DNA of 64,000 nucleotides from a virus (lineage: Duplodnaviria > Heunggongvirae > Uroviricota > Caudoviricetes), in the IMG/VR virus record IMGVR_UViG_3300028920_001945, positions 1 through 64,000 of that record, one strand, 5' to 3'. Positions within the stretch are counted from its first letter, which is position 1, and each line of letters starts with the position of its first letter. Under the pieces are notes generated by a model. It ran no database searches and was not told the DNA's origin. It was given only the letters and a program-made list of their open reading frames with translations. Position numbers and translations under genes: made by a program. Below, piece by piece: positions 9,515-61,140 of the stretch.

Positions 9515-9528
9515 GGAGTGTGTAAAAT

Positions 9529-34632: not shown

Positions 34633-34806
34633 GGAGAAATAGAATATGAAATGTAAATTTTGCAAAGAACAATTAGTAGCAAATTATGAAAGATTTTATA
34701 AATGAATATGGAGAAGATATGGAAAAATTAAGTAAATACGAGAAATTTATTTCATTAAAATATGGAATAACATTATGTACAGATTGTCATAGAGAATTAC
34801 ATTGGG

Positions 34807-35706
34807 GTGATTAAAATAATAATTTGTTGTTGGGATTCACTCAGATTAGACGCAGTAGAACCATTCAAAGGAATCTTAGGTGAAGAGTCATGGGGGGATG
34901 TACCATCCATAGATGGTTTCACCGCACCTGTATTACCATCAATAGTATGTGGTAAAACACCAGAAGAGCTAGGAGTACCTAGAGACGAAAGTGCATTCTT
35001 TTCTAGTATAGACCCAAATAAAATAGATGACACTTTATTTGATCACTTTGATTCACATGTTACAATATCTAGATTAATAGGACCTCAAACTATGCCTCAT
35101 ACTACAATGGTTCCATCTAGAAGAGGTAAGATGAAATTCATGCCTCCCATTAAATGGAATGCTAAGTCTAATTGGGCTATAGATATATGGAGAGAAGTAG
35201 GCAATAAGTGGTCTATGACAAATCCATATTGGGTAGATGTTATATTCTTCTGGACATTTATAACACATGGTAACTTTTCTTGTTATGATAGTTTAGGAGC
35301 TGTAGAATCACCCGAAATAAAGAATGGTGGTTTAGTAATGAAGAGATTACAGAAACAAGACCCAGAGGCTCTAAGAAAATTGTATATGATGGGAGTTTAT
35401 AATGGAGTAGAAACTCTAAAGGGACTTAATGAAATATCAGGTGGAAAGGAATTAATAATATGTTTTAGTGACCATCAAGAATGTCTTAATGAGACAATGA
35501 ATGGACAATTGATGCCTCCAGGACATTATAAAGATATGCATAAGATTCCTGGTTTAGAGAGAGTTCCAATTTGGATCAACAAACCCAATGAAGAACTTCC
35601 AAAGGAGCAGACTGACATTAAGGATTGGATAGTCAAAATGTATAATAAGTATGAGAAAAATAATCCAGAGTATCAAAAATGGAAAAAGGAAAAAAGTACA
35701 AAGTAG
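34807..35706 (+). CDS. alkaline-phosphatase-superfamily metalloenzyme (phosphodiesterase/sulfatase-like core)
   Basis: N-terminal IIICCWDSLRLD metal-site motif and C-terminal ICFSDHQE (SDHG-like). Confidence 0.5.
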   Translation: MIKIIICCWDSLRLDAVEPFKGILGEESWGDVPSIDGFTAPVLPSIVCGKTPEELGVPRDESAFFSSIDPNKIDDTLFDHFDSHVTISRLIGPQTMPHTTMVPSRRGKMKFMPPIKWNAKSNWAIDIWREVGNKWSMTNPYWVDVIFFWTFITHGNFSCYDSLGAVESPEIKNGGLVMKRLQKQDPEALRKLYMMGVYNGVETLKGLNEISGGKELIICFSDHQECLNETMNGQLMPPGHYKDMHKIPGLERVPIWINKPNEELPKEQTDIKDWIVKMYNKYEKNNPEYQKWKKEKSTK

Positions 35707-35888
35707 TTGGATGTAATTGTGGAAGAACTGCCACAAATAGATTATTGACTATGGGTATAATCAAAGATTCTATATTAGAGATTATTGCTATACAACCAAT
35801 AGGTCCAGTTACATTTAAAGTAGGAAAATCAGAATATACCTTAGGAAGAGGATTATTTGATAAGTTAATCTTGGAGGAAATAAAATGA
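35679..35888 (+). CDS. FeoA-like SH3 domain protein
   Basis: GRTATNRLLTMGI...G..I.V...G.P..F.VG FeoA pattern. 69 aa. Confidence 0.55.
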   Translation: MEKGKKYKVVGCNCGRTATNRLLTMGIIKDSILEIIAIQPIGPVTFKVGKSEYTLGRGLFDKLILEEIK

Positions 35889-36076
35889 TGAGAGGAAGAC
35901 GAACTAGGAGATATCAACGTCCTGGAAGAGGAATACCACAAGGAGATAAACCAGGTAGTGGACCAGGTGGAAATTGTATATGCCCAGCTTGTGGGTATAA
36001 GATTGAACACACATGGGCAGAACCTTGTAATACAAAAACTTGCCCTAAATGTGGAGCTAAGTTAACTAGAGAATGA
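35885..36076 (+). CDS. zinc-ribbon protein with basic N-terminus
   Basis: CICPACG...CPKCGAK. Confidence 0.4.
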   Translation: MMRGRRTRRYQRPGRGIPQGDKPGSGPGGNCICPACGYKIEHTWAEPCNTKTCPKCGAKLTRE

Positions 36077-36831
36077 TCGAGGTAAGTTTATTAATAGGAA
36101 TCTTAATATTTGCATTTTTATGTGAATTTATAGATTCTTCTTTGGGTATGGGATATGGCACTGCAGCCACTCCCTTACTTATGTTAATAGGAATACCAGC
36201 TTTAGAGATAATTCCAGCAGTATTATTATCAGAATTAATAACAGGGTTAATGTCTGGAATAGCTCATCATAAATTTGGTAATGTAGATTTTAATGTGAGG
36301 TCTAAGCATACTAAAGTTACTGCAGTTCTAGCATTATGTAGTATTTTAGGAGCTATAATTGCGGTTAATATAGTAGTAAACATACCAAAGTTCTATCTTA
36401 ACCTTTATATAGGATTATTGGTTTTAAGTATGGGAATAATTGTATTCCTAACAAGAAATAAACAATTTGGTTTTTCTTGGAAGAAGATAGTTGGATTAGG
36501 TTCAATAGCAGCCTTTAATAAAGGTATGTCAGGTGGAGGATATGGTCCAATCGTAATGAGTGGACAGATACTATCTGGAGTTGAAGATAAAAGTGCTGTA
36601 GGAATAACTTCAGTATCAGAAGCAATAACATCCTTTGTTGGATTAGTTGTATTCATATTACTTGGAAGTTATATCAATTTTGAACTTGCAATACCTATGA
36701 TAATAGGAGCTTCATGTGCAGTACCTATAGCAGCCTATACAACTAAAAGAATGAATTCCATTATTCTTAAAAGAAGTATAGCTTTATTGACTGTTGTACT
36801 AGGCTTAGTAACATTAGTAAAGTTGTTATAA
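36073..36831 (+). CDS. TauE/SafE-family (DUF81) permease
   Basis: Eight predicted TM helices arranged 4+4 with internal repeat symmetry. Gly-rich GYGTAATPLL motif. Confidence 0.6.
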   Translation: MIEVSLLIGILIFAFLCEFIDSSLGMGYGTAATPLLMLIGIPALEIIPAVLLSELITGLMSGIAHHKFGNVDFNVRSKHTKVTAVLALCSILGAIIAVNIVVNIPKFYLNLYIGLLVLSMGIIVFLTRNKQFGFSWKKIVGLGSIAAFNKGMSGGGYGPIVMSGQILSGVEDKSAVGITSVSEAITSFVGLVVFILLGSYINFELAIPMIIGASCAVPIAAYTTKRMNSIILKRSIALLTVVLGLVTLVKLL

Positions 36832-36851
36832 TATAAGAAAAGAGAAATAAT

Positions 36852-37904
36852 ATGACAGAAAGGAAAAAGTATAAAATAGCAGTAATGCCAGGAGATGGTA
36901 TAGGAAAAGATGTGATGGACTGTGCCATGGTTATATTGAAACACATTGACCTAGATGCAAAATACTTTCATGAAGATATAGGATTAGATGCAAAAAAAAG
37001 AAACGGTACAGCATTATCAGATCATACTCTTAGAATATTAAAAGCATGCGATTGTTGCCTATTTGGAGCTGTATCAACAACAGATGAATCCACTATCTTA
37101 AGATTAAGACAAGAATTTGCTTTAAGTACTAACTTTAGACCTTGTAAAGGTAATGGAATAGATATTGCTATATTTAGAGAAAATACTGAAGATTTATATG
37201 CTCAAGTAGAATATAATCCAATCCCAAGAAGGTTAAGGAACTTCATTAATAAACACGAACGAATGAAAAAATTTAAATATACCCCAAATGAAGAAATGGC
37301 AATAGCTTTAAGGATTATTACTGTAAAAGCATGTACAAATATAGTAGCCAGGGCGTTTAGATTTGCAGCAAGAAATAATAAAAAGAAGATCACAGTAGTA
37401 GAAAAAGCTAACGTATTGAAAGAAACTGGAAGTATAATAATTAAAGCTGTTAAAGAAATATCTAAGAAGTATCCTAATATAGAAGTAGAGATAGTTAATA
37501 TAGATAATATGTGTATGCAATTAGTAAAGAACCCTAAAAATTATGAAGTTATAGTTACTACTAATTTATTTGGTGATATATTATCAGACTTATGTAGTCA
37601 ACTAGTTGGAGGAATTGGATATGTTGGTAGTGCAAATATTGGAAAAGATTTTGCATTGTTTGAACCCATTCATGGTAGTGCTCCAAAATATGCAGGGCAG
37701 TATAAAGTCAATCCCATAGGTATGATTAGGAGTATTGTACTCATGTTGGAATGGCTAGGCGAAACAAAAAAAGCTAAAGCATTAGATTTAGCTATAAATG
37801 AAGTTATAGAAGAAGGCAAAGCGAGAACATTTGATATGGGGGGAATTAATAATAGTTTAGAGGTAGCTGAAGAAATTGCAAAGAAATATGATAACTATAT
37901 ATGA
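36852..37904 (+). CDS. isocitrate/isopropylmalate/homoisocitrate dehydrogenase-family enzyme
   Basis: NLFGDILSDLCSQLVGGIGYVGSANIG signature and an IPGDGIG N-terminal motif. Confidence 0.85.
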   Translation: MTERKKYKIAVMPGDGIGKDVMDCAMVILKHIDLDAKYFHEDIGLDAKKRNGTALSDHTLRILKACDCCLFGAVSTTDESTILRLRQEFALSTNFRPCKGNGIDIAIFRENTEDLYAQVEYNPIPRRLRNFINKHERMKKFKYTPNEEMAIALRIITVKACTNIVARAFRFAARNNKKKITVVEKANVLKETGSIIIKAVKEISKKYPNIEVEIVNIDNMCMQLVKNPKNYEVIVTTNLFGDILSDLCSQLVGGIGYVGSANIGKDFALFEPIHGSAPKYAGQYKVNPIGMIRSIVLMLEWLGETKKAKALDLAINEVIEEGKARTFDMGGINNSLEVAEEIAKKYDNYI

Positions 37905-39003
37905 TACTACTTTAAGAGATGGAGAACAGATGCCTGGTGTATTCTTCACAAAACCTCAAAAGTTAGATATTGCAAGAAAATTAGATGAAGTGGGGATAGA
38001 TGAGATAGAAGCTGGATTTCCAGCTATATCCAATAGAGAAGCCGATATAGTGAAGTCAATAGTTAATGAAGGATTAGATGCTAATATATTAGGATTATCT
38101 AGATTAAATAAAAAGGATATAGATATAGCAGCATCATCAGATGTTGATAAGATTATATTATTTGTAGGAACTTCAGATTACCATTTGAAATATAAGCTCC
38201 ATACAACATTAAATGATTTAAAAGAAAAAATGAAAGATTGTATAGATTATGCAAAACAATATGGAGATGTAACATTTGGATTTGAAGATTCTACTAGGAC
38301 AGATATAAGTATATTAAGAGATCTATCTAAAATAGTAACTGAATGTGGTGCTAAGAGAATAGGAATTGCAGATACAGTTGGTTGTGCAACTCCAATTATG
38401 ATTAAAAAATATGTAACTTCTTTAAAAGAGATAACTAATATACCAATATCATTACATCTACATAACGATTTGGGTTTAGTTACAGCAAATGCTTTTGCAG
38501 GTTTAGAAGCAGGCTCTAATGTCTATGCAACAACTGTAAATGGTATAGGAGAAAGAGCAGGTAATCTTCCCCTAGAACAATTTGCTATGATACTTAAGTT
38601 ATTTTATAAAACACATATAGACACTACAAAATTATATGAATTATCCCAATTAGTATCACTATATTCCAAAGTGCCTATATATATGAATCAACCTCTAGTC
38701 GGTAAAAATGCATTTGCTCATGAGTCGGGAATACATGTAGCAGCAATTCAAGAGAATCCAATAACATATGAATTCATACCTCCAGAAATGGTTGGTAATA
38801 AGAGAAGATTTATATTAGGTAAACATAGTGGTAAGAAGTCTATAGAGATGAAACTTAAAGAATATGGATTAAAGACTAGTATCGATAATATATGTAAAAT
38901 ATTAGATAGAGTAAAGAGATTAGGAGAGATTCAGGGAGAGGTTAGTGATATAGAGTTTCTTAATATAACTAAGGAGATTATTAATGAGGGTATGGAGATA
39001 TAA
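37876..39003 (+). CDS. short LeuA/homocitrate-synthase/citramalate-synthase-family enzyme (DRE-TIM aldolase)
   Basis: IYDTTLRDGEQ motif and HxH metal site (LHLHND). 375 aa, with no LeuA regulatory domain. Confidence 0.85.
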   Translation: MQRNMITIYDTTLRDGEQMPGVFFTKPQKLDIARKLDEVGIDEIEAGFPAISNREADIVKSIVNEGLDANILGLSRLNKKDIDIAASSDVDKIILFVGTSDYHLKYKLHTTLNDLKEKMKDCIDYAKQYGDVTFGFEDSTRTDISILRDLSKIVTECGAKRIGIADTVGCATPIMIKKYVTSLKEITNIPISLHLHNDLGLVTANAFAGLEAGSNVYATTVNGIGERAGNLPLEQFAMILKLFYKTHIDTTKLYELSQLVSLYSKVPIYMNQPLVGKNAFAHESGIHVAAIQENPITYEFIPPEMVGNKRRFILGKHSGKKSIEMKLKEYGLKTSIDNICKILDRVKRLGEIQGEVSDIEFLNITKEIINEGMEI

Positions 39004-39487
39004 ACAAGACAACATAAATACAGATTTATTATTTCCTGGAAAGAGATGCTTTCTGGGTAGTGATGAAAAAACTCTAAAGAAATATATATTAGAAGATTTA
39101 GATGAGACATTTGCTAAAGAAGTGCAACCTGGGGATATTATAATAGCAAATAAGAACTTTGGATGTGGAAGCTCAAGAGAACATCCAGTATTAGGCTTAA
39201 AGGCAGTTGGAATTGTAGCCGTTATTGCAGAAAGTTTTGCTAGAATATTTTTTAGATGTTCTATTAATAATGGATTAACCATAATAGAATCTCCAGAAAT
39301 GGTAAGAAGATACAAAAATGGAGATAAAGTTAGTGTATATGAGAGAATTGGAATAGTAAGAATTGGTGATAATGTTTATCATATTCCAAAAATGAATAAT
39401 GAAATATTGGAAATAAAGAAAAATGGCGGACTACTTGAATACACAAGAAAAAAACTCAGAGAAAAAAACATTCAAAATAAAGCCTGA
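38984..39487 (+). CDS. LeuD-like aconitase-family small subunit (no large subunit in window)
   Basis: ANKNFGCGSSREHP swivel-domain signature. 167 aa. Confidence 0.85.
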   Translation: MRVWRYKQDNINTDLLFPGKRCFLGSDEKTLKKYILEDLDETFAKEVQPGDIIIANKNFGCGSSREHPVLGLKAVGIVAVIAESFARIFFRCSINNGLTIIESPEMVRRYKNGDKVSVYERIGIVRIGDNVYHIPKMNNEILEIKKNGGLLEYTRKKLREKNIQNKA

Positions 39488-40055
39488 AACATACGTAGTA
39501 TTATTTAGTGGTGGGTTAGATAGTACTTATGCTCTATGGTACTGTGTGGCAAAGACAGATAATCCTGTTCATACACACCATGTTATTATAAGAAATGATG
39601 TATCAAAGAGATGGAAAGAAGAAAGAGAAGCTTGTAGGGATATTGTAGATTATTTACAAAAGAATTATAGAGATTTTGATTATTCAGAGTCTGGATTTGA
39701 TTTCTTTAATTTTAGAAATGTAAATTGGGATGTTGATATAGCTTTAATAGCTGGAATTATGGTAGCAAGAAATATAATGGGACTTAAGAGAATAGTATCT
39801 GGACCCACAAAAAGTGATTTAGATAGAAATCCCCATATTCCATCAGATATATTGAAGAGTGCAATTATGCCTAAAGACTGTATATATGAAGAAGGTTTTC
39901 GTCCCGGTATAACTAAAACTAAAAAAGAGATATATGATGAAATGCCTAAAGAATTATCCAAATTAGCATGGTCATGTAGACATCCAAATAATGGTAAGCC
40001 ATGTGGTGAATGTAAGGCATGTAGGCTTAGAATAGAAGAAGGAATCCCTTTATAA
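39423..40055 (+). CDS. queC: QueC-like PP-loop ATPase (7-cyano-7-deazaguanine synthase family), paralog 1
   Basis: PP-loop VVLFSGGLDST. C-terminal zinc motif WSCRHPNNGKPCGECKACRLR. 5' 65 nt overlap the LeuD-like gene. Confidence 0.75.
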   Translation: MADYLNTQEKNSEKKTFKIKPETYVVLFSGGLDSTYALWYCVAKTDNPVHTHHVIIRNDVSKRWKEEREACRDIVDYLQKNYRDFDYSESGFDFFNFRNVNWDVDIALIAGIMVARNIMGLKRIVSGPTKSDLDRNPHIPSDILKSAIMPKDCIYEEGFRPGITKTKKEIYDEMPKELSKLAWSCRHPNNGKPCGECKACRLRIEEGIPL

Positions 40056-40700
40056 ATGACTAAAGAAAAGAAAAAAATTGTAATTAAACCTCTTAAAATA
40101 GTTATGTTTAGTGGTGGACTTGATAGTACATTTATTCTTTGGTTTTATCTTACAAAAACAAAGTTTGATGTACATGTGCATCATATAAGAATTAGAAACT
40201 CTATCTCAAAAAGATGGGAAAAGGAAGATGAAGCAGTAAAAAATATAATAGAATATTGTAAAGAAAATTATAGGAAATTTACATATTCAGAATCTGCATT
40301 CGACTTCTTTGGTTTTCCTAATGTAAACTGGGATGTAGATGTAGCAGGTTTTGTAGGAACTATGGTTGCTAGAAGTCTTATTATATATAGAAATGAAGAA
40401 CCTCTTAATAGACCCATGACTATATGTGTAGGAGCCTGTAAGGACGATGGAATCAATGAACATAGACAATTAGGAATATTGGATGGTATCATAAGAAACT
40501 CTTCATTACTAGAACCAACCACTACACCTAGAGCTGAAAGAATAGCCTCTAATATGACTAAAAAACAAATGCTAGAAAAGATGCCCAAAGAATTATCAGA
40601 TTTAACTTGGTCTTGCAGAATTCCAAAGGCAGGTAAACCCTGTGGTAAATGTAAATCATGTAAAATTATAAATAAAGCAAAGGAAGAATTGGGATGGTAA
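40056..40700 (+). CDS. queC: QueC-like PP-loop ATPase, paralog 2
   Basis: PP-loop IVMFSGGLDST. C-terminal zinc motif WSCRIPKAGKPCGKCKSCKII. Confidence 0.75.
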   Translation: MTKEKKKIVIKPLKIVMFSGGLDSTFILWFYLTKTKFDVHVHHIRIRNSISKRWEKEDEAVKNIIEYCKENYRKFTYSESAFDFFGFPNVNWDVDVAGFVGTMVARSLIIYRNEEPLNRPMTICVGACKDDGINEHRQLGILDGIIRNSSLLEPTTTPRAERIASNMTKKQMLEKMPKELSDLTWSCRIPKAGKPCGKCKSCKIINKAKEELGW

Positions 40701-40736
40701 TGTGAATATGTTTAATAAAATAAAAGGAGAGATATT

Positions 40737-41057
40737 ATGGTAGACCATATAACAGATACATATACATTTACTGTGGAAGTAGTTCAACATGGAGATTTAG
40801 CTATATCAAATGTAGAATTCCCATCTCCAGTAGAACCAGGAGAAGAATATATTGTTGGTTACGATGTAATTAATAATGGTGGTAATGACACCTGTTTTGG
40901 TTTTATAGGCGATGTGGATAATGATAATATGGAAATAGCTGAAACTAGATGGCAACAAACTATTCCATCTGGAGAAGAACAGCATTTCGAAGCTACCCTT
41001 ACCGGTAGATCTAATGACCTCCATGCAAAAATTAATGTAGGTTATTATACGGAGTGA
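40737..41057 (+). CDS. hypothetical protein
   Basis: 106 aa. Confidence 0.45.
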   Translation: MVDHITDTYTFTVEVVQHGDLAISNVEFPSPVEPGEEYIVGYDVINNGGNDTCFGFIGDVDNDNMEIAETRWQQTIPSGEEQHFEATLTGRSNDLHAKINVGYYTE

Positions 41058-41061
41058 TATT

Positions 41062-41343
41062 ATGCCTAAAGTTAGTGTTTATGATGTAGATACTCCAGAG
41101 GAGGTATCCCCTGGAGATAGCCTTAATATAAAGGTTAAAGTGCTTCACACATCCTTACCATGGTGGTTAGGTGGACGATTAATAGGAGTGGTATCATTTC
41201 TAAATGAAGATGGAGAAGAATTATTTAGAAAAAGACATTTATTTAAACCTTGGTGGTTTTGGGGATATAAAACATTCTCATTTAATATCGATGAATTACC
41301 AGAGACCACAATGTTTAGTTTAGATGTAGGATGGACTGAATAG
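41062..41343 (+). CDS. hypothetical protein
   Basis: 93 aa. Confidence 0.45.
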   Translation: MPKVSVYDVDTPEEVSPGDSLNIKVKVLHTSLPWWLGGRLIGVVSFLNEDGEELFRKRHLFKPWWFWGYKTFSFNIDELPETTMFSLDVGWTE

Positions 41344-41351
41344 GTGATTAA

Positions 41352-41684
41352 ATGAAAAAGAAACAATTTGAACATTATAAGAAATTAAATGAAGATAAGA
41401 TACCTATAACAAGAGATGAGAATGGAGAAACAATGGATGCAGACTTTATATACAAAAAGAAAAAGAGGATAGTACCTCAAATGTCATCGCAACCAGATTG
41501 GGATCTATTAGAATTAAGACTTGAAAAGAAACTTGAACTAGGAATGATTAAACCCATATATAATATGAATGGGGTCCTTTCTCCAGAAGTACAAATTCAA
41601 GAGGTAAGAAATAGAACCGATCTTGGATATAAACTTATGTTAGCTGAGAAAGGTTTATTGGATTATATGTTGGCTTATGAATAA
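41352..41684 (+). CDS. hypothetical protein
   Basis: 110 aa. Confidence 0.45.
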   Translation: MKKKQFEHYKKLNEDKIPITRDENGETMDADFIYKKKKRIVPQMSSQPDWDLLELRLEKKLELGMIKPIYNMNGVLSPEVQIQEVRNRTDLGYKLMLAEKGLLDYMLAYE

Positions 41685-41865
41685 AATAGAAGCAACAATC
41701 AACAAAGGTAAATACAAGGGTAAGTATCTTGAAGTGATTATAGGAGAATCTAATACAGATACAAAGATAATCTTAGACGGAAAAGAATTAACCAATGTAA
41801 TGAATCTAGATATTCATATTGATTGTGATATGAGAACAATAAAGATGGAGTTGTTTGATAGATGA
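41677..41865 (+). CDS. hypothetical protein
   Basis: 62 aa. Confidence 0.4.
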   Translation: MNKIEATINKGKYKGKYLEVIIGESNTDTKIILDGKELTNVMNLDIHIDCDMRTIKMELFDR

Positions 41866-42551
41866 ATAAAAGAGATGTAATGTTCATCCGGCCATCTGAC
41901 TGTAGATATTGTTGGAATGGTTATTTCGGATTAGGACATGTTGTAGATTATGCTGCAGATAAATCCTTTAATATAGAGGATCTAAAATCAGAACAAGCTG
42001 ATAATCCATACATTGATGATACCGTTAATAGCTTTAATCCATTTATGATTTATGGATTTGGACACGGTAACGTTAATGTTTATACAGCTAATTCTGAGAC
42101 TCCAGTATGGGTAGTAGGAGAAAATCTAACTCATCTATCAGGTAGGATAATATATTTATTATCTTGTTTGACCGCTAATCAATTGGGTCCATATCTTATA
42201 GATCAGGGAGTTTTATCATATGGTGGATTCCTAGTATCGTGGACTTGGTTAACAGAAGATTTAAATGGAGATCCCTATAATGATTTTTATGCAGAAGGAT
42301 TCTATAAGAGTGTAAATAGATTCTTTGAATCTTTATTGGATGATAATGTTATGTCAAGAGCTATGCAGGATTCCATAGAGGAATATAATAATTGGATAGC
42401 TTACTGGGAAACATCGAATGATGAATCTGCCAGTGAAATTATTAAATGGTTAATCCATGATAGAGATGGTTTAATAATATATGGAGATCCAAATGCATCC
42501 ATGCTTGATATAATAGCTACTTATGATTTCACAGTTGAGGTTTCAACATGA
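41862..42551 (+). CDS. hypothetical protein (possible Cys/His peptidase-like)
   Basis: CRYCWNGYFG and YGFGHGN resemble papain-like Cys and His sites only weakly. Confidence 0.45.
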   Translation: MNKRDVMFIRPSDCRYCWNGYFGLGHVVDYAADKSFNIEDLKSEQADNPYIDDTVNSFNPFMIYGFGHGNVNVYTANSETPVWVVGENLTHLSGRIIYLLSCLTANQLGPYLIDQGVLSYGGFLVSWTWLTEDLNGDPYNDFYAEGFYKSVNRFFESLLDDNVMSRAMQDSIEEYNNWIAYWETSNDESASEIIKWLIHDRDGLIIYGDPNASMLDIIATYDFTVEVST

Positions 42552-42793
42552 TAAAAATATATTCCGTACCAGATTGCAAATTATGTAAAAAAGCAAAGGA
42601 ATTACTAACAAAAATGAATATAGAATTTGAAGAATATAATCTCAAAAAACCAGAAAATAGAGATGCCAGAAAATTCTATAGGAATTTAGGAGTAAAAACG
42701 GCTCCCATTATAGTTGGAGTAGACAAAAAAGGAGAAGAATGGATTCTAACAGAATTCAATGAAGAATCCCTATTAGAATTACTAGGAGTTTAA
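42548..42793 (+). CDS. glutaredoxin/NrdH-like redoxin
   Basis: IYSVPDCKLCKKAK CxxC active site in a thioredoxin-fold-sized 81-aa protein. Confidence 0.65.
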   Translation: MIKIYSVPDCKLCKKAKELLTKMNIEFEEYNLKKPENRDARKFYRNLGVKTAPIIVGVDKKGEEWILTEFNEESLLELLGV

Positions 42794-42797
42794 TATA

Positions 42798-43049
42798 ATG
42801 AAAAATAAAGAAGAGGAATCAGGAAATATACCAGAGTTTGATGAAGAGGATATAGAAGATATAGATGAGGATGAAGAAGATGAAGAGGAAGAAGAAGAAA
42901 AGAAGTCAGATAATCCAACTAGAAGAATACAGGTTTGTACCTTAAATACTCAAGTAGAAATAACTTCTAGTGATCCAGAAGATAGACTTGAAAAACTAAA
43001 GGGAATGGCTGAAGACCTAATAAATAAATATGGTAGGTTAAAGGAATGA
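42798..43049 (+). CDS. hypothetical acidic protein
   Basis: EDIEDIDEDEEDEEEEEE tract. Confidence 0.4.
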   Translation: MKNKEEESGNIPEFDEEDIEDIDEDEEDEEEEEEKKSDNPTRRIQVCTLNTQVEITSSDPEDRLEKLKGMAEDLINKYGRLKE

Positions 43050-43064
43050 TTAAGGAGTTTACAA

Positions 43065-43259
43065 ATGAACTGTCCAAAGTGCAATGCAAAGAGTATGGTA
43101 AAGAATACCATATACAAGACAGGATTTACATTGAGATATAGACAATGCTTAAATAAGAACTGCAGATGGAGATTTAAAACAAAAGAAATGCTGGCAGATG
43201 AATGGAATTATAAAGGCATCGTATTAAAGATTAAAAAAATAATAAATGAAGTAAACTGA
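43065..43259 (+). CDS. TFIIS/TFS-type zinc-ribbon protein
   Basis: CPKC-x17-RYRQCLNKNCRWRF matches the TFIIS C-terminal ribbon pattern CxxC...RxxxCxxCxxxW. Confidence 0.45.
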   Translation: MNCPKCNAKSMVKNTIYKTGFTLRYRQCLNKNCRWRFKTKEMLADEWNYKGIVLKIKKIINEVN

Positions 43260-43379
43260 TATCCCAGAAAATATATATGTCTTTTTTATAGTATATATAG
43301 CAATCCATTTTGCTACATATACTAAAAAAATGAGATATTTTAGTAACATGCACGTGAAGTGTAGGGGTTTGATGAACAA

Positions 43380-43679
43380 ATGGAAAATAACTCTCAAATA
43401 GATGGAACTACCAAGGAATATATGGATAACCATCCAAGTTATAAGATAGTATGGGATGATTATAAGAGAGGAAAGATAAATATAAAAAGATACATTTCTG
43501 ATATCCTTAGGAAGAAGGATATTTCCATATCCAAGGATGGAATGGCAGAAGTGACATCTCGTGTATATGATATGATATATGATGATATAACTAATATAAG
43601 TGAGATGATTGTAGAAGATGGTAGAAAGAGAATTAGAGAAGAAGATATAATAAATTATTATAGTAAGTTGATTATATGA
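43380..43679 (+). CDS. hypothetical protein
   Basis: 99 aa. Confidence 0.45.
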   Translation: MENNSQIDGTTKEYMDNHPSYKIVWDDYKRGKINIKRYISDILRKKDISISKDGMAEVTSRVYDMIYDDITNISEMIVEDGRKRIREEDIINYYSKLII

Positions 43680-44116
43680 ACATTAAAGTAGAGACACTAC
43701 ATATAGAAAAACCAACAAAAGATTTATATTCCATACTTGGATATAAACATACAATAGATCTCCCAACAGAAATAAATGGAACTGCTAGATTGATTCACGA
43801 TCCTCAGTTAGATTTTGATAAGTTAACAAATAATGAAGAACCCTTAACACTCTATGCTGACCTTAAGGGAGATAGTTATTTATTAAAGAATTGTAGAATA
43901 ACTGGTTATGATGTCACTATGACTAGTGGAGGACCAATAGAATCTACATTTGATTTTGTAGCTGAAGATGCAGTGAGTCCTGCATATGTTAAAGTTAAGT
44001 TTAGAGATGTAGAAGTCGAGGTGGACTATAAACACTATTCAAAGTTGGAAGGAGAAGACTTTGAGAGTATGACCTATTCAGATTTTAAGGATAAGGTCAT
44101 GGTAGAGGAATTATAA
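43676..44116 (+). CDS. hypothetical protein
   Basis: 146 aa. Ends VMVEEL. Confidence 0.45.
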   Translation: MNIKVETLHIEKPTKDLYSILGYKHTIDLPTEINGTARLIHDPQLDFDKLTNNEEPLTLYADLKGDSYLLKNCRITGYDVTMTSGGPIESTFDFVAEDAVSPAYVKVKFRDVEVEVDYKHYSKLEGEDFESMTYSDFKDKVMVEEL

Positions 44117-44117
44117 T

Positions 44118-44606
44118 ATGGAAGAAGAAATATCAAGAATAGAAGATCTTATTGAAAGACGAGCAAATAGAAAGTTTGAAGAAAGCACAAAAATTGTTAA
44201 AGTAGATAGAAAGAAAATGTTAGAAAATCTTAAGGCAGCCAAACAGGATATAAAGGATGAACAGAAGAAAGCTGAAGACCTTTGGAAACAAGCTATTGAA
44301 GCTTATTATGAATATATGAAGAAACATATGGCATCAAAACAAATAGGCAATCCTCCCGATAAGCCTAGATTACCAGAAGAATATGATACTATTGATGGAT
44401 ATACTCATCTATTTGAAAGCCTAACGGATGATAAACTAAATTTAGAAATAGATTTTCTAGAAAAGATTTATCTAAAAACAGCCAAAGGAATAACAGAAGC
44501 TAAACAAAGTACTGCATATATGGCAGCATTTTGTAGTGGAAGTGCTTTTGGTGTAAGTGATTTTAGTCTAAATACAACTGGAGTTTACAACTACAAAGAG
44601 GAATAA
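44118..44606 (+). CDS. hypothetical protein
   Basis: 162 aa. Confidence 0.45.
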   Translation: MEEEISRIEDLIERRANRKFEESTKIVKVDRKKMLENLKAAKQDIKDEQKKAEDLWKQAIEAYYEYMKKHMASKQIGNPPDKPRLPEEYDTIDGYTHLFESLTDDKLNLEIDFLEKIYLKTAKGITEAKQSTAYMAAFCSGSAFGVSDFSLNTTGVYNYKEE

Positions 44607-46186: not shown

Positions 46187-46376
46187 ATTTGAGGAAGTTT
46201 GCAAAATCCTTAAAGATAGAGGTTATAGAGCAGTTAGTATGGAAGGTCCAACAAAAAGAATATTTATAGATGATGAACATAACATAAATATAACTATAGA
46301 AATAGATAATGACACTCTAACTGCTGAAGATGAGAAAATTATAGAAGAACGTTTAATAGAATTAGGTTATCTATAA
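46170..46376 (+). CDS. hypothetical protein
   Basis: 68 aa. Confidence 0.4.
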   Translation: MMTMSEFEEVCKILKDRGYRAVSMEGPTKRIFIDDEHNINITIEIDNDTLTAEDEKIIEERLIELGYL

Positions 46377-47299
46377 TGAAAAAGAAAAAAGTGGTAATTA
46401 CCGGAATAAGTGGCTTCATTGGAAGTAACTTAGCAGAATATCTTGATACAGATTATGATATAGTTGGTTTTGATAGAGAACCATGGAAGGATCAGAATAA
46501 TAGACCGTTTTTTAAACAGGATATAAATGATCCCCTAACAGATTTGCATGATGTATATGCAGTCATTCATCTGGCAGCCAAAGCTGGAGTTAGAGAATCT
46601 CAAGATAATTTTGAACAATATGTTCATGATAATATTCTTGGAACAAAATCTATTCTAGATAAATGTATAGACTGGAAACCTTCCATTATATTAATTGCAT
46701 CTTCTTCCAGTATATCAGGGGATAAGGAGAGAGGACACTTTCCAAAATCATTATATGCAGTCAGTAAAGTTACAACAGAAGAGATTTTAAATTCCTATAT
46801 AAGAAATGGGTTATTGGATAGTGATACAACTACTTCAATATTAATACCCTATACTGTATATGGACCCAATCAGAGAAAAGGTCTAGCTATAAGAAATTTT
46901 ATAGATGCAATTATTAGAGAGCAACCCATAACTATATATGGAGATGGAACTCAATCTAGAGATTTCACATACATAGAAGATCTTTGTATAAAGATAAAAC
47001 AAATGCTAGATGAACCTCATAGTATAGGACAAATAACTCATTTAGGTTCAAGAAAACAATACACCATAAATCAGATTATATCTATGATAGCGAGAATTAC
47101 GGAAAAACCCATAACGGTTAATTACGTACCAAGAAATAGATTTGATGTTGATTCTACTCTAGCTCCATATCCATGCTTAGATAAAATAACACCCATAGAG
47201 AGAGGATTAGAAAAACAAATTAAGTGGGCAAAGAATATCTATAATATAGAAAGATTAAGAAAGAATGCCCAAAATTTAAATAAGGAAAAGAAAAAATGA
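46376..47299 (+). CDS. NAD-dependent sugar epimerase/dehydratase (extended SDR)
   Basis: VVITGISGFIGSNL Rossmann motif and YAVSK catalytic YxxxK. Confidence 0.85.
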   Translation: MKKKKVVITGISGFIGSNLAEYLDTDYDIVGFDREPWKDQNNRPFFKQDINDPLTDLHDVYAVIHLAAKAGVRESQDNFEQYVHDNILGTKSILDKCIDWKPSIILIASSSSISGDKERGHFPKSLYAVSKVTTEEILNSYIRNGLLDSDTTTSILIPYTVYGPNQRKGLAIRNFIDAIIREQPITIYGDGTQSRDFTYIEDLCIKIKQMLDEPHSIGQITHLGSRKQYTINQIISMIARITEKPITVNYVPRNRFDVDSTLAPYPCLDKITPIERGLEKQIKWAKNIYNIERLRKNAQNLNKEKKK

Positions 47300-48189
47300 G
47301 CTTTGATTTAGCTATGGCCTTTGATAAGGCAGAATATCTAAATCCTCAAATATATATGCTCATAGATACCTTAAAGGATAATATTCCTAAGGATACAATA
47401 CTTCATATTAATACAAATCGTTCCGATGACAATGAACTACTACAATATATCCATAAGTGTTTAGGGACGATAGTATATAAAAAACCTCCATTTGAGGATT
47501 TAAAGTCAAGGTGTCAATATATGTTTCATGCATTTGAAATTGAAACAGATAAAGAATGGATAATGAAAATAGAAGGGGATCTGCTGGTACTTAAGAATCT
47601 TAACGAATTTGATAAGTTATTGAAGCCAGAGTATGATCTGGTTATAGAACCTGAGAATAGAAAAATACATTCAGATATTATCGCCACAAAACTTTGGAGA
47701 TTAATATATAATCGTCTTGATATAAAACAACCTAAGGATAAAATTGTTTTTAGGGAGAACAATGAAGAAGGTTTACCATTGTATGGAACTGGATTAGTTT
47801 GTGTAAAGAACAAGCATCTAGAAACTATTAATAATAGATGGATTCCATTAACTAAAATTTGTGAGGACTGGATTCAATTTAATATTCATCCAAATGAATT
47901 TGCCTTTACTGCTATGACATATGATGAAGGATGGAACACTTACTTATATCCTCCAAAATATAAATTCAATCCAATAGGACATTTCAGAAAGGGGGATTAT
48001 CCTTCAACTGAATTGATAGAGAACTGTAAATTACCAGAAGATACAATTATCTTTGATTATCATAGACCTGAATGGTTGATGCATGTTGCTAAATATAATG
48101 AGAATATTCGTAATATTATAAAACGAAATAAGAAATATATACCAGAAGACTGGTGGAATCTAACTACAGGAGATTTTCAGGAAGGATGA
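47296..48189 (+). CDS. hypothetical protein in glycan cluster
   Basis: 297 aa with no clear motif. Possibly a glycosyltransferase-like fold. Confidence 0.45.
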   Translation: MSFDLAMAFDKAEYLNPQIYMLIDTLKDNIPKDTILHINTNRSDDNELLQYIHKCLGTIVYKKPPFEDLKSRCQYMFHAFEIETDKEWIMKIEGDLLVLKNLNEFDKLLKPEYDLVIEPENRKIHSDIIATKLWRLIYNRLDIKQPKDKIVFRENNEEGLPLYGTGLVCVKNKHLETINNRWIPLTKICEDWIQFNIHPNEFAFTAMTYDEGWNTYLYPPKYKFNPIGHFRKGDYPSTELIENCKLPEDTIIFDYHRPEWLMHVAKYNENIRNIIKRNKKYIPEDWWNLTTGDFQEG

Positions 48190-48731
48190 AAAATCATAAG
48201 CCTACAACACAATTCATAAAACGTATTTATAAAAAACAGAACTTAATTGGAGTAGAAGTAGGTGTATGGAAAGGTAGTAATGCTAAAGATATGTTAGAGT
48301 TTCTACCCATAAAGAAATTATATTTAGTAGATCCATATCTACATTATAATAATTATAATGATTATAAAGAAGACGATATGGATGAGATGTATCTGAAAGT
48401 TAAAAAGAAATTTGAACCATTTGGAGATAAGGTTGAATTAATTAGAAAAATGTCCTTTGATGCATTAGATAATATTCCAGATGAATGTGATTTTATTTAT
48501 ATAGATGCAAACCATGCATATGAATTTGTTAAGAAGGATTTAGAATTATTTTATCCAAAAGTAAAAAAAGGTGGAATATTGGGAGGTCATGATTATCATT
48601 ATCTAAGACATCCAGGAGTAACCAAAGCAGTAGATGAATTTTGTAATAATATTAATAGTAAGATTTATAGTATGATTGAAAGTATAGATAGTAGAGGATT
48701 AGAAGTATCAGATTGGTGGATGATTAAATAA
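48153..48731 (+). CDS. class I SAM-dependent O-methyltransferase (TylF/MycF-like)
   Basis: LIGVEVGVWKGSNA SAM motif I and DANHAYEFV motif. Confidence 0.7.
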   Translation: MESNYRRFSGRMKNHKPTTQFIKRIYKKQNLIGVEVGVWKGSNAKDMLEFLPIKKLYLVDPYLHYNNYNDYKEDDMDEMYLKVKKKFEPFGDKVELIRKMSFDALDNIPDECDFIYIDANHAYEFVKKDLELFYPKVKKGGILGGHDYHYLRHPGVTKAVDEFCNNINSKIYSMIESIDSRGLEVSDWWMIK

Positions 48732-49924
48732 TGAGAGTATTCAAGAAAATATCAACTCCTTTTGTAGATTCAAGACCTGATAAAGCTATTATAGTAGTGA
48801 ATGGAATAGACCCACAAGTAAATACTATAAAGGCTTTTATACAGGCGTGTGACGATTATAAGATCAGTTATACAGTTTTTGTTAATAAGACAGATTGTTT
48901 AGAGGATGAAAAGTATACAGTTGGTTATATTAAGCAATCTCTAAATTTAAAAGATATTCAGTTTGGCTCTGCTAAAACTGGAAAGGGATTCAAAAAATTA
49001 GCAACATATCTAGACCTGTGGTTTGGTAAGAGAATTATAGTTTTGGGTGTATTTAATTCTGGAAAGACATCTTTAATAAATAGATTAACAGGAGAAAACC
49101 TTAAGGTAGGAACAATACCTGGAACTACTCTAGAATTTACAGAAATACCTGTTAATGGAACAGTTAAGAATATAGGAAAAGAAAATGAGGAAAAGATAGA
49201 AACAGTCTTAATAGATTCTGTAGGTCAATTAATAGATATACATAAACCCATGATGGTATCTATAGATTTTAGTGGTTGTATAACCGGATATGAAAAAATA
49301 AATAAAGTATTTGAAGAAGAAATATTGGGATTAGTTGAAACTCAAGAAAGAGTTAAGAATGATATATTTACAGTAGTTAAGGTTATTAAGCAAGCTTTAT
49401 CAGAAGGTAATAAAATTATAATTACAGGAGCTGGAGCATCAGCTTTAGTAGCTAAAGAGATGGCTGGGCAAGGAACAGAATGTGGTTTACCAATTTTGGT
49501 ATTTACTAATGATGGAGCTGAATTACAACCTGTAACATTCTCAAAGGGTCTAGGAGAACAAGAAGGTGGTTTATCTAAATATATAGCTAATGCAATTAAT
49601 CCAGGAGATATAGTTATAGGAATTAGTGCATCAGGTGGTACTGGATTTGTATTTGATACCTTAAGAAGAGGTAGAGAAAAGAAAGCAATTCCCATAGCTA
49701 TAACAGAGAATTCTGATACACCTTTAGGACATGCAGCTCTATATATAATAAAAAGTGAAGCTAAACCAGAAGGACCCAGTAGTTCCAAAATACAAACAGC
49801 CCATTTGGTTATAGGCCATGCCTTAATATTAACACTAGCAGATGAACTAGGAGTATCAGCTGATGAATCAGTTGGATATATGTTACCAGAAATATTAGAA
49901 AATAAAAAAATGGGAATTAAATAA
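48731..49924 (+). CDS. circularly permuted GTPase fused to SIS (sugar isomerase) domain
   Basis: The order G4 VNKTD, then G5 SAKTG, then G1 GVFNSGKTSLINRL, then G2 GTT, then G3 DSVG is the cpGTPase topology (YlqF/YqeH-like). The C-terminal half has SIS motifs IIITGAGAS...VIGISASGGTG. Confidence 0.6.
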   Translation: MRVFKKISTPFVDSRPDKAIIVVNGIDPQVNTIKAFIQACDDYKISYTVFVNKTDCLEDEKYTVGYIKQSLNLKDIQFGSAKTGKGFKKLATYLDLWFGKRIIVLGVFNSGKTSLINRLTGENLKVGTIPGTTLEFTEIPVNGTVKNIGKENEEKIETVLIDSVGQLIDIHKPMMVSIDFSGCITGYEKINKVFEEEILGLVETQERVKNDIFTVVKVIKQALSEGNKIIITGAGASALVAKEMAGQGTECGLPILVFTNDGAELQPVTFSKGLGEQEGGLSKYIANAINPGDIVIGISASGGTGFVFDTLRRGREKKAIPIAITENSDTPLGHAALYIIKSEAKPEGPSSSKIQTAHLVIGHALILTLADELGVSADESVGYMLPEILENKKMGIK

Positions 49925-50283
49925 TGACAGAATATTCTATAGAAGAACATAAATGGGAAATAAAGGGAATACCAGATGAAGATGGTATATTATTTAAGAT
50001 GTACCTTTCAGATATAGGAGAAATTGGAAGAGCACGAGTAGTTAAAATATTTAATGATACTCGACAACAATATTATGCTCTCTTAGAGGATTTAATATTA
50101 GAAGAAGAATATAGAGGTATAGGATTTGGATATATGTTTGTAAAACAGATTATTCAAGAAGTGGAAAAAGAAGGATGCTATAAGTTTATAGCTACATCCA
50201 GATTCGGTAGAGATATGATACATAAATTTTATATGGATTTAGGTTTTAAAGAGTGGGGCTACGAATTTAGAATTGATTTATGA
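49924..50283 (+). CDS. GNAT-family N-acetyltransferase
   Basis: EEYRGIGFGYMFVKQ acetyl-CoA motif A. 119 aa. Confidence 0.55.
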   Translation: MTEYSIEEHKWEIKGIPDEDGILFKMYLSDIGEIGRARVVKIFNDTRQQYYALLEDLILEEEYRGIGFGYMFVKQIIQEVEKEGCYKFIATSRFGRDMIHKFYMDLGFKEWGYEFRIDL

Positions 50284-51179
50284 ATATAGGATATTTTAAT
50301 GCTAGAGGCATAAATGATGTTGAACATTGGTTTGCTTTAGAAATAGAAGAATTACTTAGAAGAAAACATAATGTTGTAAATTTTTCATTTAGAGGACAAC
50401 AACCAAATAGAGAGCATATCCAGTGGATGGATTTTGCTCATTTTCATTTTGCTCAAGTAGCAGACCACTATAAGAGAATTGGAGTTCCATTTGCTATAAG
50501 TCCTCACGCTAATGATATATTTGTGGATAATGGAGCTACTCTTATAAAGGCTAGCAAACATCCCAAATGTAAATTTGTAACATACCAATCATTTTATCAT
50601 AAGAGAAAATTTGAGGAATGGGGAATAACTAAACCTCTAGTATATTTACCAATGTGTTGTAGAGTAAATTTATTCAAGAGAGAACATCCCACATTACATT
50701 TAACAGGAGATAAAATAATAGCGGGTGGAAGATTAATACCTAAAAAGGGATTAGATAGATTATCTTCAGTAGATAATTTAGTTATATTTGGTACTGGTCC
50801 ATTAGAGGATGAATTAAAGGAGAAATTACCTAAGGCTGAATTTGTTGGATGGCAGAGTGGTGATGTATTAAAATATACATATTCAAGAGGATGGATATTT
50901 TTAAATCCTAGTATAGTTACTGGAGATGGAGATTCAGATGGTATTCCTAACACCATTAAAGAAGCTATGCTTATGGAGATGCAAGTAATATCAAGTCCAG
51001 TAGCTGGTATACCTGAATTAGAACAGGTAACATTATTTGATGATTGGGATAATATAAATGAATGTATAGAGACTATACCTAGAATTCCTAACAAGAAGGG
51101 AAGGAAGGAGATATTAAATACCTATAGTCCTAGATCATGTGTAGATAGATTATTAAAGGCAATAGAGGAATATAATTGA
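50280..51179 (+). CDS. glycosyltransferase (GT-B, group 1-like)
   Basis: GGRLIPKKGLDRL and an EAMLMEMQVISSPVAGIPE region. Confidence 0.6.
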   Translation: MNIGYFNARGINDVEHWFALEIEELLRRKHNVVNFSFRGQQPNREHIQWMDFAHFHFAQVADHYKRIGVPFAISPHANDIFVDNGATLIKASKHPKCKFVTYQSFYHKRKFEEWGITKPLVYLPMCCRVNLFKREHPTLHLTGDKIIAGGRLIPKKGLDRLSSVDNLVIFGTGPLEDELKEKLPKAEFVGWQSGDVLKYTYSRGWIFLNPSIVTGDGDSDGIPNTIKEAMLMEMQVISSPVAGIPELEQVTLFDDWDNINECIETIPRIPNKKGRKEILNTYSPRSCVDRLLKAIEEYN

Positions 51180-53124: not shown

Positions 53125-53136
53125 GAGGTAATTAAT

Positions 53137-54126: not shown

Positions 54127-54221
54127 GTGATTATGTGGAATTTCACCGAATTGGTTGGTATTGTAGTAACTGTAATATAAATATATATAAAGATATATAT
54201 GGAGATATTAGGGGATAAGAA

Positions 54222-56456: not shown

Positions 56457-56817
56457 GATGTGTGAAATATTAAGAAAAGAAAAGGATGAGTTCTTATATG
56501 ATGATAGTGAAATAGCCATAGTTAGAACTAAATTAATGAAGGGTCACCATAAAAGAGTTATGGTTATATCTAAAGAGCACATAAAGGAATTAAATCCCCA
56601 TACAGAAAGGGACTATCTACATATATTCATAAAATTCTGTCAAGAATATTTTAATGAAGAGCCAACTTTTTGTTTAAATGATCCGACATATGCAACCTAT
56701 CCAGAACATTGGCATAGAGTAGCATGTGACTGGATAACTGATGATCCAAGAGAAATGAGACAATTACATTATACACCACATAAATCAATAAGGACAAAAG
56801 TAACATGGAGCCCATAA
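56413..56817 (+). CDS. HIT-like protein
   Basis: CKMCEI...FLYDDSEIAIVRTKL...VMVISKEHI matches the HIT N-terminal fold pattern. The histidine triad is degenerate (EHWHRV). Confidence 0.5.
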   Translation: MIKPGENLRNMKGCKMCEILRKEKDEFLYDDSEIAIVRTKLMKGHHKRVMVISKEHIKELNPHTERDYLHIFIKFCQEYFNEEPTFCLNDPTYATYPEHWHRVACDWITDDPREMRQLHYTPHKSIRTKVTWSP

Positions 56818-61137: not shown

Positions 61138-61140
61138 ATA

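Follow-up and report, generated by a model that had tools for sequence, protein, structure and literature searches.

A 2-oxoacid elongation gene set without a large hydro-lyase subunit in a large AT-rich virus: a possible pairing with a host enzyme

Introduction

How could a virus use a pathway when it carries only one half of one of its enzymes? This question is raised by a stretch of 64,000 nucleotides of viral DNA (Caudoviricetes; positions 1 to 64,000 of IMG/VR record IMGVR_UViG_3300028920_001945), which we call the window. A run of nine genes in it includes members of three enzyme families of the 2-oxoacid elongation cycle: an acetyl-CoA:2-oxoacid condensing enzyme (the synthase), a beta-decarboxylating dehydrogenase and the small subunit of a LeuD/HacB-type hydro-lyase. 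We refer to these three genes as the trio. We did not find a gene for the large subunit of the hydro-lyase in the window. We propose that the virus encodes an elongation module that pairs its small subunit with a large subunit of the host and that acts on a substrate like those of the coenzyme B pathway. We give this reading a probability of roughly 0.45.

In the proposed cycle the viral synthase would condense a 2-oxoacid with acetyl-CoA. The viral small subunit would then dock, most likely, on a [4Fe-4S] large subunit of the LeuC/AksD type supplied by the host, and would contribute its GSSRE motif and its own substrate-recognition loop to the hybrid hydro-lyase. The hybrid would isomerise the product of the viral synthase, a 2-hydroxy acid, to the 3-hydroxy acid. 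Finally, the dehydrogenase would decarboxylate it oxidatively to a 2-oxoacid one carbon longer, and the cycle would be iterative. The substrates would most likely be dicarboxylic 2-oxoacids derived from 2-oxoglutarate, as in the coenzyme B pathway, and the chain-length preference may possibly be shifted.

Results

The large subunit is absent from the sequence examined

Pfam calls were accepted above the gathering score, and NCBIfam models were judged against their own cut-offs. We did not detect a Pfam Aconitase match on any open reading frame (ORF) of the window. Flanks were added from other assemblies, 8.3 kb upstream and 5.2 kb downstream (13.5 kb), which gave approximately 77 kb in total, and a tblastn search of the window and these flanks with LeuC of Thermoplasmata (L010) returned nothing better than E = 0.07. 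A cryptic large subunit was also considered among the unannotated large ORFs, and none was plausible. A first-pass annotation, made from the letters of the window alone, had reported that no LeuC-like large subunit is present, and both searches bear this out for the window, and the tblastn search for the 13.5 kb of flank as well. The same annotation had pointed to a LeuC gene just outside the window as the sign of a plain acquired operon; such a gene was absent from the 8.3 kb upstream and the 5.2 kb downstream.

In 80 cellular loci we observed LeuC within 300 nucleotides of the LeuD-like gene in 17 of 21 cases, and the four exceptions were contig ends or weak matches. In one Bathyarchaeial locus (L022) the genes run IDH-LeuA-LeuC-LeuD, as in the virus except for the added LeuC.

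The virus might nevertheless own a large subunit elsewhere, in which case this would be an ordinary acquired four-gene pathway, split in the genome. The part examined is approximately 77 kb of a presumed 115.8 kb, which leaves room for such a gene. However, all judgeable cellular LeuD-like genes adjoin LeuC, the tight viral operon leaves no space for a large-subunit gene, and a diverged second allele of the region (L007) also runs from the synthase straight to the small subunit. Relatives of 115-145 kb in IMG/VR lack the pathway altogether. Moreover, no capsid, portal, terminase or tail gene was found within the approximately 77 kb, and the remaining part must hold these structural genes; we therefore consider a hidden large subunit improbable.

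Pairing with a host subunit is supported by precedents for the sharing of subunits. Arabidopsis has one large subunit and three small subunits that set the substrate, and its leucine synthesis and methionine chain elongation share the large subunit and use different small subunits (PMC7308503). A small subunit of Pyrococcus is able to take over the function of the homoaconitase small subunit in Thermus (PMC7308503).

The recognition loop of the small subunit is altered in both viral alleles

The viral small subunit scored 153 bits with the NCBIfam model TIGR02087 LEUD_arch (cut-off 109) and contains FGCGSSREHP, which includes the GSSRE motif. The HacB models gave 115-119 versus a cut-off of 230. 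The nearest relatives are LeuD-like proteins of Thermoplasmata (55-63% identity), which JGI names 3-isopropylmalate/(R)-2-methylmalate dehydratase small subunit. In proteins of this type the GSSRE motif binds the substrate and a loop sets the substrate preference (PMC7308503).

We observed that this recognition loop is KRCFLGS in both viral alleles, compared with KY[TIV]Y[TS]CS in the cellular relatives. The YLVY-type loop of archaeal isopropylmalate isomerase (MJ1277) is absent from the viral protein, which has CFLG at that position. We then counted columns that are at least 90% conserved in 118 cellular sequences (86 columns). The virus keeps 70 of the 86, and 67 of the 74 that lie outside the recognition loop. 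The recognition region, residues 18-35, accounts for nine of the 16 changes (Fisher p = 4e-6), and these nine are common to both alleles. In homoaconitase, Jeyakanthan et al. in 2010 reportedly assigned a role to Arg26 and Thr27 of the YLRT loop.

A small subunit with no partner gene and a heavily altered recognition loop could also form no enzyme at all; it might be a decoy that titrates the host large subunit and so turns off a pathway of the host, or have another role, and the synthase and dehydrogenase would then act independently. We hold this to be very improbable, since GSSRE and nearly all other conserved positions are kept, the ratio of nonsynonymous to synonymous substitution rates (dN/dS) is 0.19, and the loop changes are conserved between the alleles and not degenerate. 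In addition, the gene shares an operon with the two enzymes that flank its reaction.

The dehydrogenase keeps the invariant columns of its family

The best NCBIfam models for the dehydrogenase were AksF2_Meth (320 versus 540) and LEU3_arch (303, below cut-off). The scores of AksF_Meth (267 versus 500), leuB (205 versus 353) and IDH (270 versus 510) were below cut-off as well. We aligned five sequences, namely the viral protein, two AksF and two Bathyarchaeial LeuB-like proteins. The viral enzyme keeps all columns invariant among them, including an Arg triad, a Tyr, a Lys and three Asp, which we take to be catalytic. It has an insertion of 23 amino acids, NPIPRRLRNFINKHERMKKFKYT, at residues approximately 118-140 (window 37200-37270). 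This insertion is absent from the four cellular homologs and from the archaeal isopropylmalate dehydrogenase (IPMDH) structure 1wpw, and it aligns weakly with a segment of prokaryotic NADP-dependent isocitrate dehydrogenase (IDH). The motif before the conserved Arg was tried as a guide to specificity and rejected, as it did not cleanly separate the AksF and archaeal LeuB types.

The synthase is of neither classical type by motif and aks-like by gene context

The synthase contains TLRDGEQ and HLHND, which correspond to the RDGEQ and HxH metal motifs and are invariant with its relatives. Pfam detected only HMGL-like and HCS_D2 in the 375 amino acids, and therefore no LeuA_dimer regulatory domain; an alternative start, ATG at 37888, would give 371 amino acids. 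The nearest cellular synthases are 50-55% identical and come from Thermoplasmata and Methanomassiliicoccales, with the JGI name methanogen homocitrate synthase. The best models of isopropylmalate synthase (IPMS) remained below cut-off (442 versus 517; 376 versus 600).

We compared a pocket motif that was calibrated on loci from named genomes. It reads VRF[AST]AED in the synthases of aks clusters and in the homocitrate synthase (HCS) structures 6ktq and 3ivs, VEFS.ED in IPMS, [AP]SFS[TS]ED in the Thermoplasmatota clade and VTFGFED in the virus. The Arg of the first form, which we take to be TtHCS Arg133, is absent from the viral synthase and from its cellular clade. The IPMS Glu is absent from the viral motif, where Thr is found. 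A rule based on His72 of homocitrate synthase was dropped, because AksA in clusters with YLRT has Leu or Phe at this position.

The viral synthase keeps 114 of the 126 clade-conserved columns. The changes shared by the viral alleles include S135G (Ser in 118 of 118 cellular relatives), T165A, I97V and A98G; the Ser at 135 precedes the catalytic Glu by two residues. These changes presumably lie at or near the positions mapped to MtIPMS S216, P252 and Y169, and we take residue 135 to be MtIPMS S216 (numbering S216-P217-E218). In the MAM1-A structure 6e1j, FGCED aligns to the viral FGFED, and AksA in aks clusters has Ala at the position of residue 135. All these viral changes are to smaller residues, which suggests a roomier pocket. 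S216G has been described as the substitution of largest effect in turning IPMS into methylthioalkylmalate (MAM) synthase (PMC8490860). Specificity positions are remodelled in both viral alleles, in the synthase pocket as well as in the small-subunit loop.

Gene context gave a further comparison. Five Methanomicrobiales loci hold a radical S-adenosylmethionine (SAM) enzyme, a thiamine diphosphate (ThDP) enzyme, the synthase (AksA), LeuC (AksD), LeuD with RYLRT (AksE), DUF7714 and IDH (AksF). In Thermoplasmatota, the gene before the synthase is DUF7714 at loci L013 and L014 and, at L038, a radical SAM gene with homologs in all five aks clusters and in L014. DUF7714 or an aks-type radical SAM gene thus adjoins the sister-clade synthase in 3 of 4 loci; neither is present in the viral window. 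The synthase clade appears to be of neither classical type by its motif and aks-like by its gene context, and the support for this placement is good but not complete. Because of this context we favour dicarboxylic substrates of the coenzyme B route. The trio descends from genes of Thermoplasmatota, probably of a Methanomassiliicoccales-like kind.

The aks clusters themselves lie at 7783-14580 in L035 and also in L028, L033, L041 and L070, with DUF7714 (PF24830) between aksE and aksF. The flanking genes in Thermoplasmatota are at 3347-4189 (L013), 8782-9645 (L014) and 8832-9947 (L038), each DUF7714 or radical SAM. The radical SAM enzyme, the ThDP enzyme and DUF7714 are candidates for steps of coenzyme B biosynthesis that have no assigned gene. 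Our literature search found no paper mentioning DUF7714.

Coenzyme B-like substrate or amino-acid supply

The same borrowed host large subunit could instead serve amino-acid supply, namely leucine, isoleucine via citramalate, or lysine via 2-aminoadipate. Having no regulatory domain, the synthase would not be subject to feedback control, and the window proteome is rich in the residues concerned (10% Lys, 9% Ile, 8% Leu). The closest solved small subunits are the MJ1277 isopropylmalate/citramalate isomerase and P. horikoshii LeuD, and the JGI names of the small-subunit relatives point in the same direction. There is no Arg at the homoaconitase R26 position of the recognition loop, and the HCS/AksA Arg is absent from the synthase; because of these two absences an amino-acid role stays a serious rival, although we judge it unlikely. 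The IPMS Glu is also absent from the synthase, and the gene context ties its cellular clade to aks clusters. Furthermore, Methanomassiliicoccales keep a separate leu operon (L039, L042) with a synthase only 39-40% identical, and the virus-specific changes of specificity positions argue against a plain copy of a host housekeeping activity.

Several observations weigh against our main reading, in which viral small and host large subunits would act together on a coenzyme B-like substrate. Approximately 38 kb of the presumed 115.8 kb genome lie outside the approximately 77 kb examined and could hold a large subunit. The virus, with 30% GC, is oddly matched with Thermoplasmatota loci of 52-57% GC. 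The best cellular match of the synthase (P0004) adjoins a different radical SAM gene and no DUF7714. No NCBIfam equivalog cut-off was reached. Among solved structures, the small subunit matches the isopropylmalate/citramalate isomerase subunit of M. jannaschii best (121 bits) and the homoaconitase subunit less well (89). YLRT of methanogen homoaconitase is absent from the viral small subunit, which has CFLG there; as the HCS Arg is absent too, a tricarboxylate is no more than a candidate substrate.

The trio lies in an accessory insertion and is under purifying selection

We examined three IMG/VR relatives (L131-L133), viral genomes of 115-145 kb whose ribonucleotide reductase is 78-82% identical to that of the window. 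Homologs of the alkaline phosphatase (AP)-fold and zinc-ribbon genes of the region were present in all three and FeoA in one (L131); the AP-fold homologs of these three were 56-76% identical. The TauE permease gene, the trio and the two PP-loop genes were absent from all three. In L131 the homolog of the window gene at 40737 comes immediately after the zinc-ribbon gene. From this junction and from the absence of the cassette in the relatives we conclude, by sequence comparison, that 36073-40700 (TauE to PP-loop 2) is a 4.6 kb accessory insertion of six genes. In another relative (L095) the AP-fold gene is accompanied by two EamA half-permeases, in the position that corresponds to TauE, and by one PP-loop gene; the trio is absent. 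This arrangement indicates that the pairing of a permease with a PP-loop gene recurs beside the AP-fold gene, and that the trio is an addition inside the pairing. Scars or repeats were sought at the cassette borders, and only chance AT-rich matches were seen.

The comparison with the L007 allele covered window 38371-44123. Amino-acid identity was 71% for the synthase (dN/dS 0.28), 77% for the small subunit (dN/dS 0.19) and 66% for PP-loop 1 (dN/dS 0.30), with dS of approximately 0.72 for all three. PP-loop 2 was 99% identical, and PP-loop 2 together with the downstream genes showed 91-100% identity (dS <=0.09). Where the two PP-loop genes meet, identity jumps at a sharp mosaic boundary. The contrast in identity indicates that, in a virus otherwise near-identical, the trio and PP-loop 1 have diverged as a block. 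The trio is intact and, judged by these ratios, under purifying selection.

The same sequence with the same viral flanks was found in JGI 3300030616, ENA ERZ27252253 and ENA ERZ27252234, and the L007 allele in ENA ERZ27252208, JGI 3300028883 and Logan SRR8554434. Because the same junctions recur in independent assemblies, the region is not a chimeric assembly. The GC content at third codon positions (GC3) of the nine genes is 0.16-0.26, compared with a genome value of 0.20, and the trio shows viral codon usage. A decaying hitch-hiker or an assembly artefact, functionless in infection, could be suspected since public assemblies break at differing points in or near the region. This idea is already largely refuted and barely credible, given that the same viral junctions occur in at least three assemblies of this allele and in three of the second, that GC3 equals that of the rest of the genome, and that the ORFs are intact with dN/dS of 0.19-0.30.

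Layout of the region

All nine ORFs that the first-pass annotation had placed at 34807-40700 are present, on the + strand (Table 1). The junctions between the nine genes are -28, -4, -4, +20, -29, -20, -65 and 0 nucleotides, and a gap of 174 nucleotides lies upstream of the run. Such tight junctions fit a single transcription unit. Upstream, a short ORF with an HNH-like tail runs 8 nucleotides into the AP-fold gene; it may be the first cistron or an endonuclease remnant, and in the latter case it may be what is left of a homing endonuclease that bordered the variable region.

The gene-by-gene family calls of that annotation were correct by Pfam and NCBIfam and, for the AP fold, by AlphaFold and Foldseek. 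That the synthase, dehydrogenase and small subunit belong to the families of the 2-oxoacid elongation cycle was confirmed by Pfam, NCBIfam and matches to solved structures. The description of the last two genes as QueC-like held at the level of the Pfam family and failed at the equivalog level (TIGR00364, 30 and 23 versus 150). An extension of phosphonates, one of the options listed, found no support, as Pfam detected no phosphoenolpyruvate (PEP) mutase on any ORF of the window.

Table 1. Genes of the region in window coordinates and the basis of each assignment. HICDH, homoisocitrate dehydrogenase; aa, amino acids.
Feature	Coordinates	Strand	Basis
ORF of 42 aa, HNH-like CxxCHxxxH tail	34686..34814	+	sequence only; C-terminal end LCTDCHRELHWGD
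AP-superfamily enzyme, 299 aa, soluble	34807..35706	+	AlphaFold model and Foldseek
FeoA-domain protein, 69 aa	35679..35888	+	Pfam FeoA 41 bits versus cut-off 23
Zinc ribbon, 63 aa, N-terminus Arg/Gly-rich	35885..36076	+	sub-threshold zinc-ribbon matches only
TauE/SafE (TSUP) permease, 252 aa	36073..36831	+	Pfam TauE 113 bits versus 33
IDH/IPMDH/HICDH-family beta-decarboxylating dehydrogenase, 350 aa	36852..37904	+	Iso_dh 277 bits
Short LeuA/homocitrate-synthase-family acetyl-CoA:2-oxoacid condensing enzyme, 375 aa	37876..39003	+	HMGL-like 256, HCS_D2 84 bits
LeuD/HacB-type hydro-lyase small subunit, 167 aa	38984..39487	+	Aconitase_C 65 bits
PP-loop ATPase paralog 1, QueC family	39423..40055	+	Pfam QueC 40 bits versus 22
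PP-loop ATPase paralog 2, QueC family	40056..40700	+	Pfam QueC 35 bits versus 22

The AP-fold, FeoA and zinc-ribbon genes

The AP-fold protein gave no Pfam and no PHROG match. Its AlphaFold model (pLDDT 80, pTM 0.84) matched MCR-1/EptC, sulfatases and BcsG in Foldseek at probability 1.0 and TM of approximately 0.55, which agrees with the AP-superfamily call made from the letters alone. The protein has the motifs WDSLRLD, FTAP and SDHQE. Across its homologs D222, H223 and E225 appear invariant and DSLRxD is the apparent consensus; the Thr of FTAP is kept in all full-length homologs, with varying neighbouring residues, as judged from the alignment. Only 16 relatives were found among 1.84 billion representatives. 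Homologs 55-76% identical occur in L095 and L131-L133, that is in every relative examined, and the same four hold zinc-ribbon homologs (61-85% identical). The FeoA homolog of L131, which has no trio, is 40% identical. One AP-fold homolog (P0259) carries an intein-like insertion of approximately 350 amino acids directly after a conserved ADHGE motif, and the position of the intein suggests that ADHGE/DHGE is the active site of the AP fold.

The permease and PP-loop genes and what they might add

The TauE match spans residues 11-245 of the permease (Pfam). The two PP-loop paralogs are 46% identical to each other, and in the alignment of the family neither the SGGLDS loop nor a C-x8-C-x2-C-x2-C site varies. 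A word-indexed homolog search gave 15 relatives, and a fold search of the PP-loop protein gave generic PP-loop matches only. The deazaguanine genes FolE, QueD, QueE and TGT/DpdA were absent from the ORFs of the window. A metagenome scan yielded distant relatives only, among the matches listed. Such distant relatives (30-36% identity) occur in many phage contigs, near weakly matching methyltransferase-like and tail-fibre-like genes. An attempt to read the function of the PP-loop proteins from context was given up, as distant relatives are found without the trio and without deazaguanine genes.

The whole cassette might instead encode a single virus-specific pathway that leads to a new small molecule. 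In it the trio would produce an unusual 2-oxoacid, which the PP-loop ATPases would adenylate and amidate or thiolate, and TauE would import a precursor or export the product. This would fit six genes that came as one insertion with overlapping or abutting reading frames, a diverged allele block shared by the trio and PP-loop 1 (with 91-100% identity from PP-loop 2 onward), the permease and PP-loop genes that also stand beside the AP-fold gene in L095, the remodelled specificity positions and a PP-loop family that is small and uncharacterised. However, L095 has its permease and PP-loop gene without the trio, the distant phage relatives of the PP-loop protein stand near tail-fibre-like or methyltransferase-like genes and never with the trio, and there is no chemistry that connects a 2-oxoacid to a QueC-type enzyme. 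We find such a pathway distinctly unlikely.

It is similarly doubtful that the cassette boosts or bypasses the thiol cofactors of methyl-coenzyme M reductase in a Methanomassiliicoccales-like host. In that case the aks-like trio with host AksD would lead to 2-oxosuberate, the precursor of coenzyme B. TauE would move a sulfonate or sulfur compound, e.g. coenzyme M or sulfite, and the PP-loop ATPases would perform a late step that has no assigned enzyme yet, e.g. the ATP-dependent amide bond to threonine or a sulfur transfer.

The carrier virus

The window has approximately 30% GC and a strong positive GC skew, with nearly all genes on the + strand. It encodes a family B DNA polymerase (PolB), an archaeo-eukaryotic primase, a RadA/Rad51-like ATPase, ribonucleotide reductase and an ERCC4/HhH nuclease, together with two tRNAs and the phage-associated families GP88, YopX and Ogr/Delta. 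The closest known PolB belongs to the haloarchaeal Halorubrum tailed virus 25 (25% identity). We read the element as a large undescribed AT-rich virus, apparently of archaea, with a presumed genome of about 116 kb (115.8 kb). A known phage was considered and rejected, as the phage collection gave no nucleotide match, and so was a Borg-like element, as the window is without long perfect tandem repeats.

Some further features of the element were recorded. The ORF at 15747-16076 matches ribosomal protein S17e (Pfam E = 6e-10), an archaeal/eukaryotic protein that is unusual as viral cargo, and this match hints at an archaeal host. Genes for glycan modification occupy 46376-64000 and continue, in L004, to approximately 14 kb beyond position 55187; this cluster exceeds 20 kb. 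It comprises glycosyltransferases, epimerases, an NTP-transferase, GHMP and PfkB kinases, SIS, transaldolase, a split transketolase, a sulfotransferase, methyltransferases and at least four radical SAM enzymes, one of them with a B12-binding domain. In L132 (3300028920_000694, 2344-4530) the ribonucleotide reductase match is in two pieces approximately 670 nucleotides apart, which suggests an intein or inserted element. Proteins with collagen-triple-helix repeats are encoded at 18347-19015 of the window and at 2958-3647 of L095, and in L095 this gene stands directly after the PP-loop gene. By eye, a protein of 382 amino acids (1726-2874) has a ligase-like KxDG motif (EKLDGT) and one of 300 amino acids (12594-13496) has DHH/RecJ-like motifs; neither gave a Pfam match.

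Comparison with known systems

The coenzyme B pathway of methanogens (AksA, AksD/AksE, AksF) uses the same three families, including a short synthase without a regulatory domain. The aks clusters of Methanomicrobiales share DUF7714 and radical SAM neighbours with the nearest cellular clade of the viral synthase, and AksF2_Meth is the best NCBIfam model for the viral dehydrogenase. In contrast, the virus has no AksD, its loop is KRCFLGS and not YLRT, its synthase has Thr-Phe-Gly where AksA has Arg-Phe-Ala, and the window holds no DUF7714, ThDP decarboxylase or aks-type radical SAM gene.

The archaeal leucine/citramalate pathway (LeuA/CimA, LeuCD, LeuB) also consists of these families; the viral small subunit passes TIGR02087 and MJ1277 is its closest PDB entry. 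The virus differs in that it has no LeuC, no LeuA_dimer, no IPMS Glu, no YLVY loop and no scores at equivalog level.

Extension steps like those of a homocitrate synthase, an aconitase and an IDH also occur in the biosynthesis of phosphinothricin and FR-900098, which relies partly on host enzymes of primary metabolism. The likeness lies in the reuse of these three kinds of reaction. By Pfam, the window contains neither a PEP mutase nor any other phosphonate gene, and the relatives of the viral synthase are archaeal and aks-type.

The division of labour that we propose resembles that of methionine elongation in Arabidopsis (MAM, SSU2/3, LSU1, IPMDH1), which has its own synthase, small subunit and dehydrogenase and borrows the housekeeping large subunit (PMC7308503). 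MAM has also lost the regulatory domain and has Gly at the position of MtIPMS S216 (PMC8490860; 6e1j alignment). The plant enzymes differ in being plastid enzymes derived from bacterial-type LeuA and LeuD, and the partners there belong to one genome and not to a virus and its host. The likeness is one of analogy only and not of common descent.

As a host-derived metabolic set in a variable island of a viral genome, the trio resembles viral auxiliary metabolic genes. The first-pass annotation had called it unusual as viral cargo, and it is indeed nearly absent from the viral collections. In IMG/VR (2.9 million contigs) we found only three weak LeuA-like matches and no small subunit of this clade, and none of the PHROGs families corresponds to the synthase, small subunit, TauE, FeoA or AP-fold protein. 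The main text of a survey that lists 24 viral methane-metabolism genes names no aks gene (PMC10904782), and another survey, of archaeal viruses, is silent in its main text on isopropylmalate, homocitrate and aconitase genes (PMC13465236).

In summary, these results suggest a known type of pathway whose carrier is new and whose labour is unusually divided between virus and host. If the pairing is true, the virus would retarget a host enzyme by contributing no more than its substrate-reading subunit, and the costly, oxygen-sensitive subunit that bears the cluster would be left to the cell. 2-Oxoacid elongation would then join the auxiliary functions of archaeal viruses, possibly as a coenzyme B branch that feeds methanogenesis.

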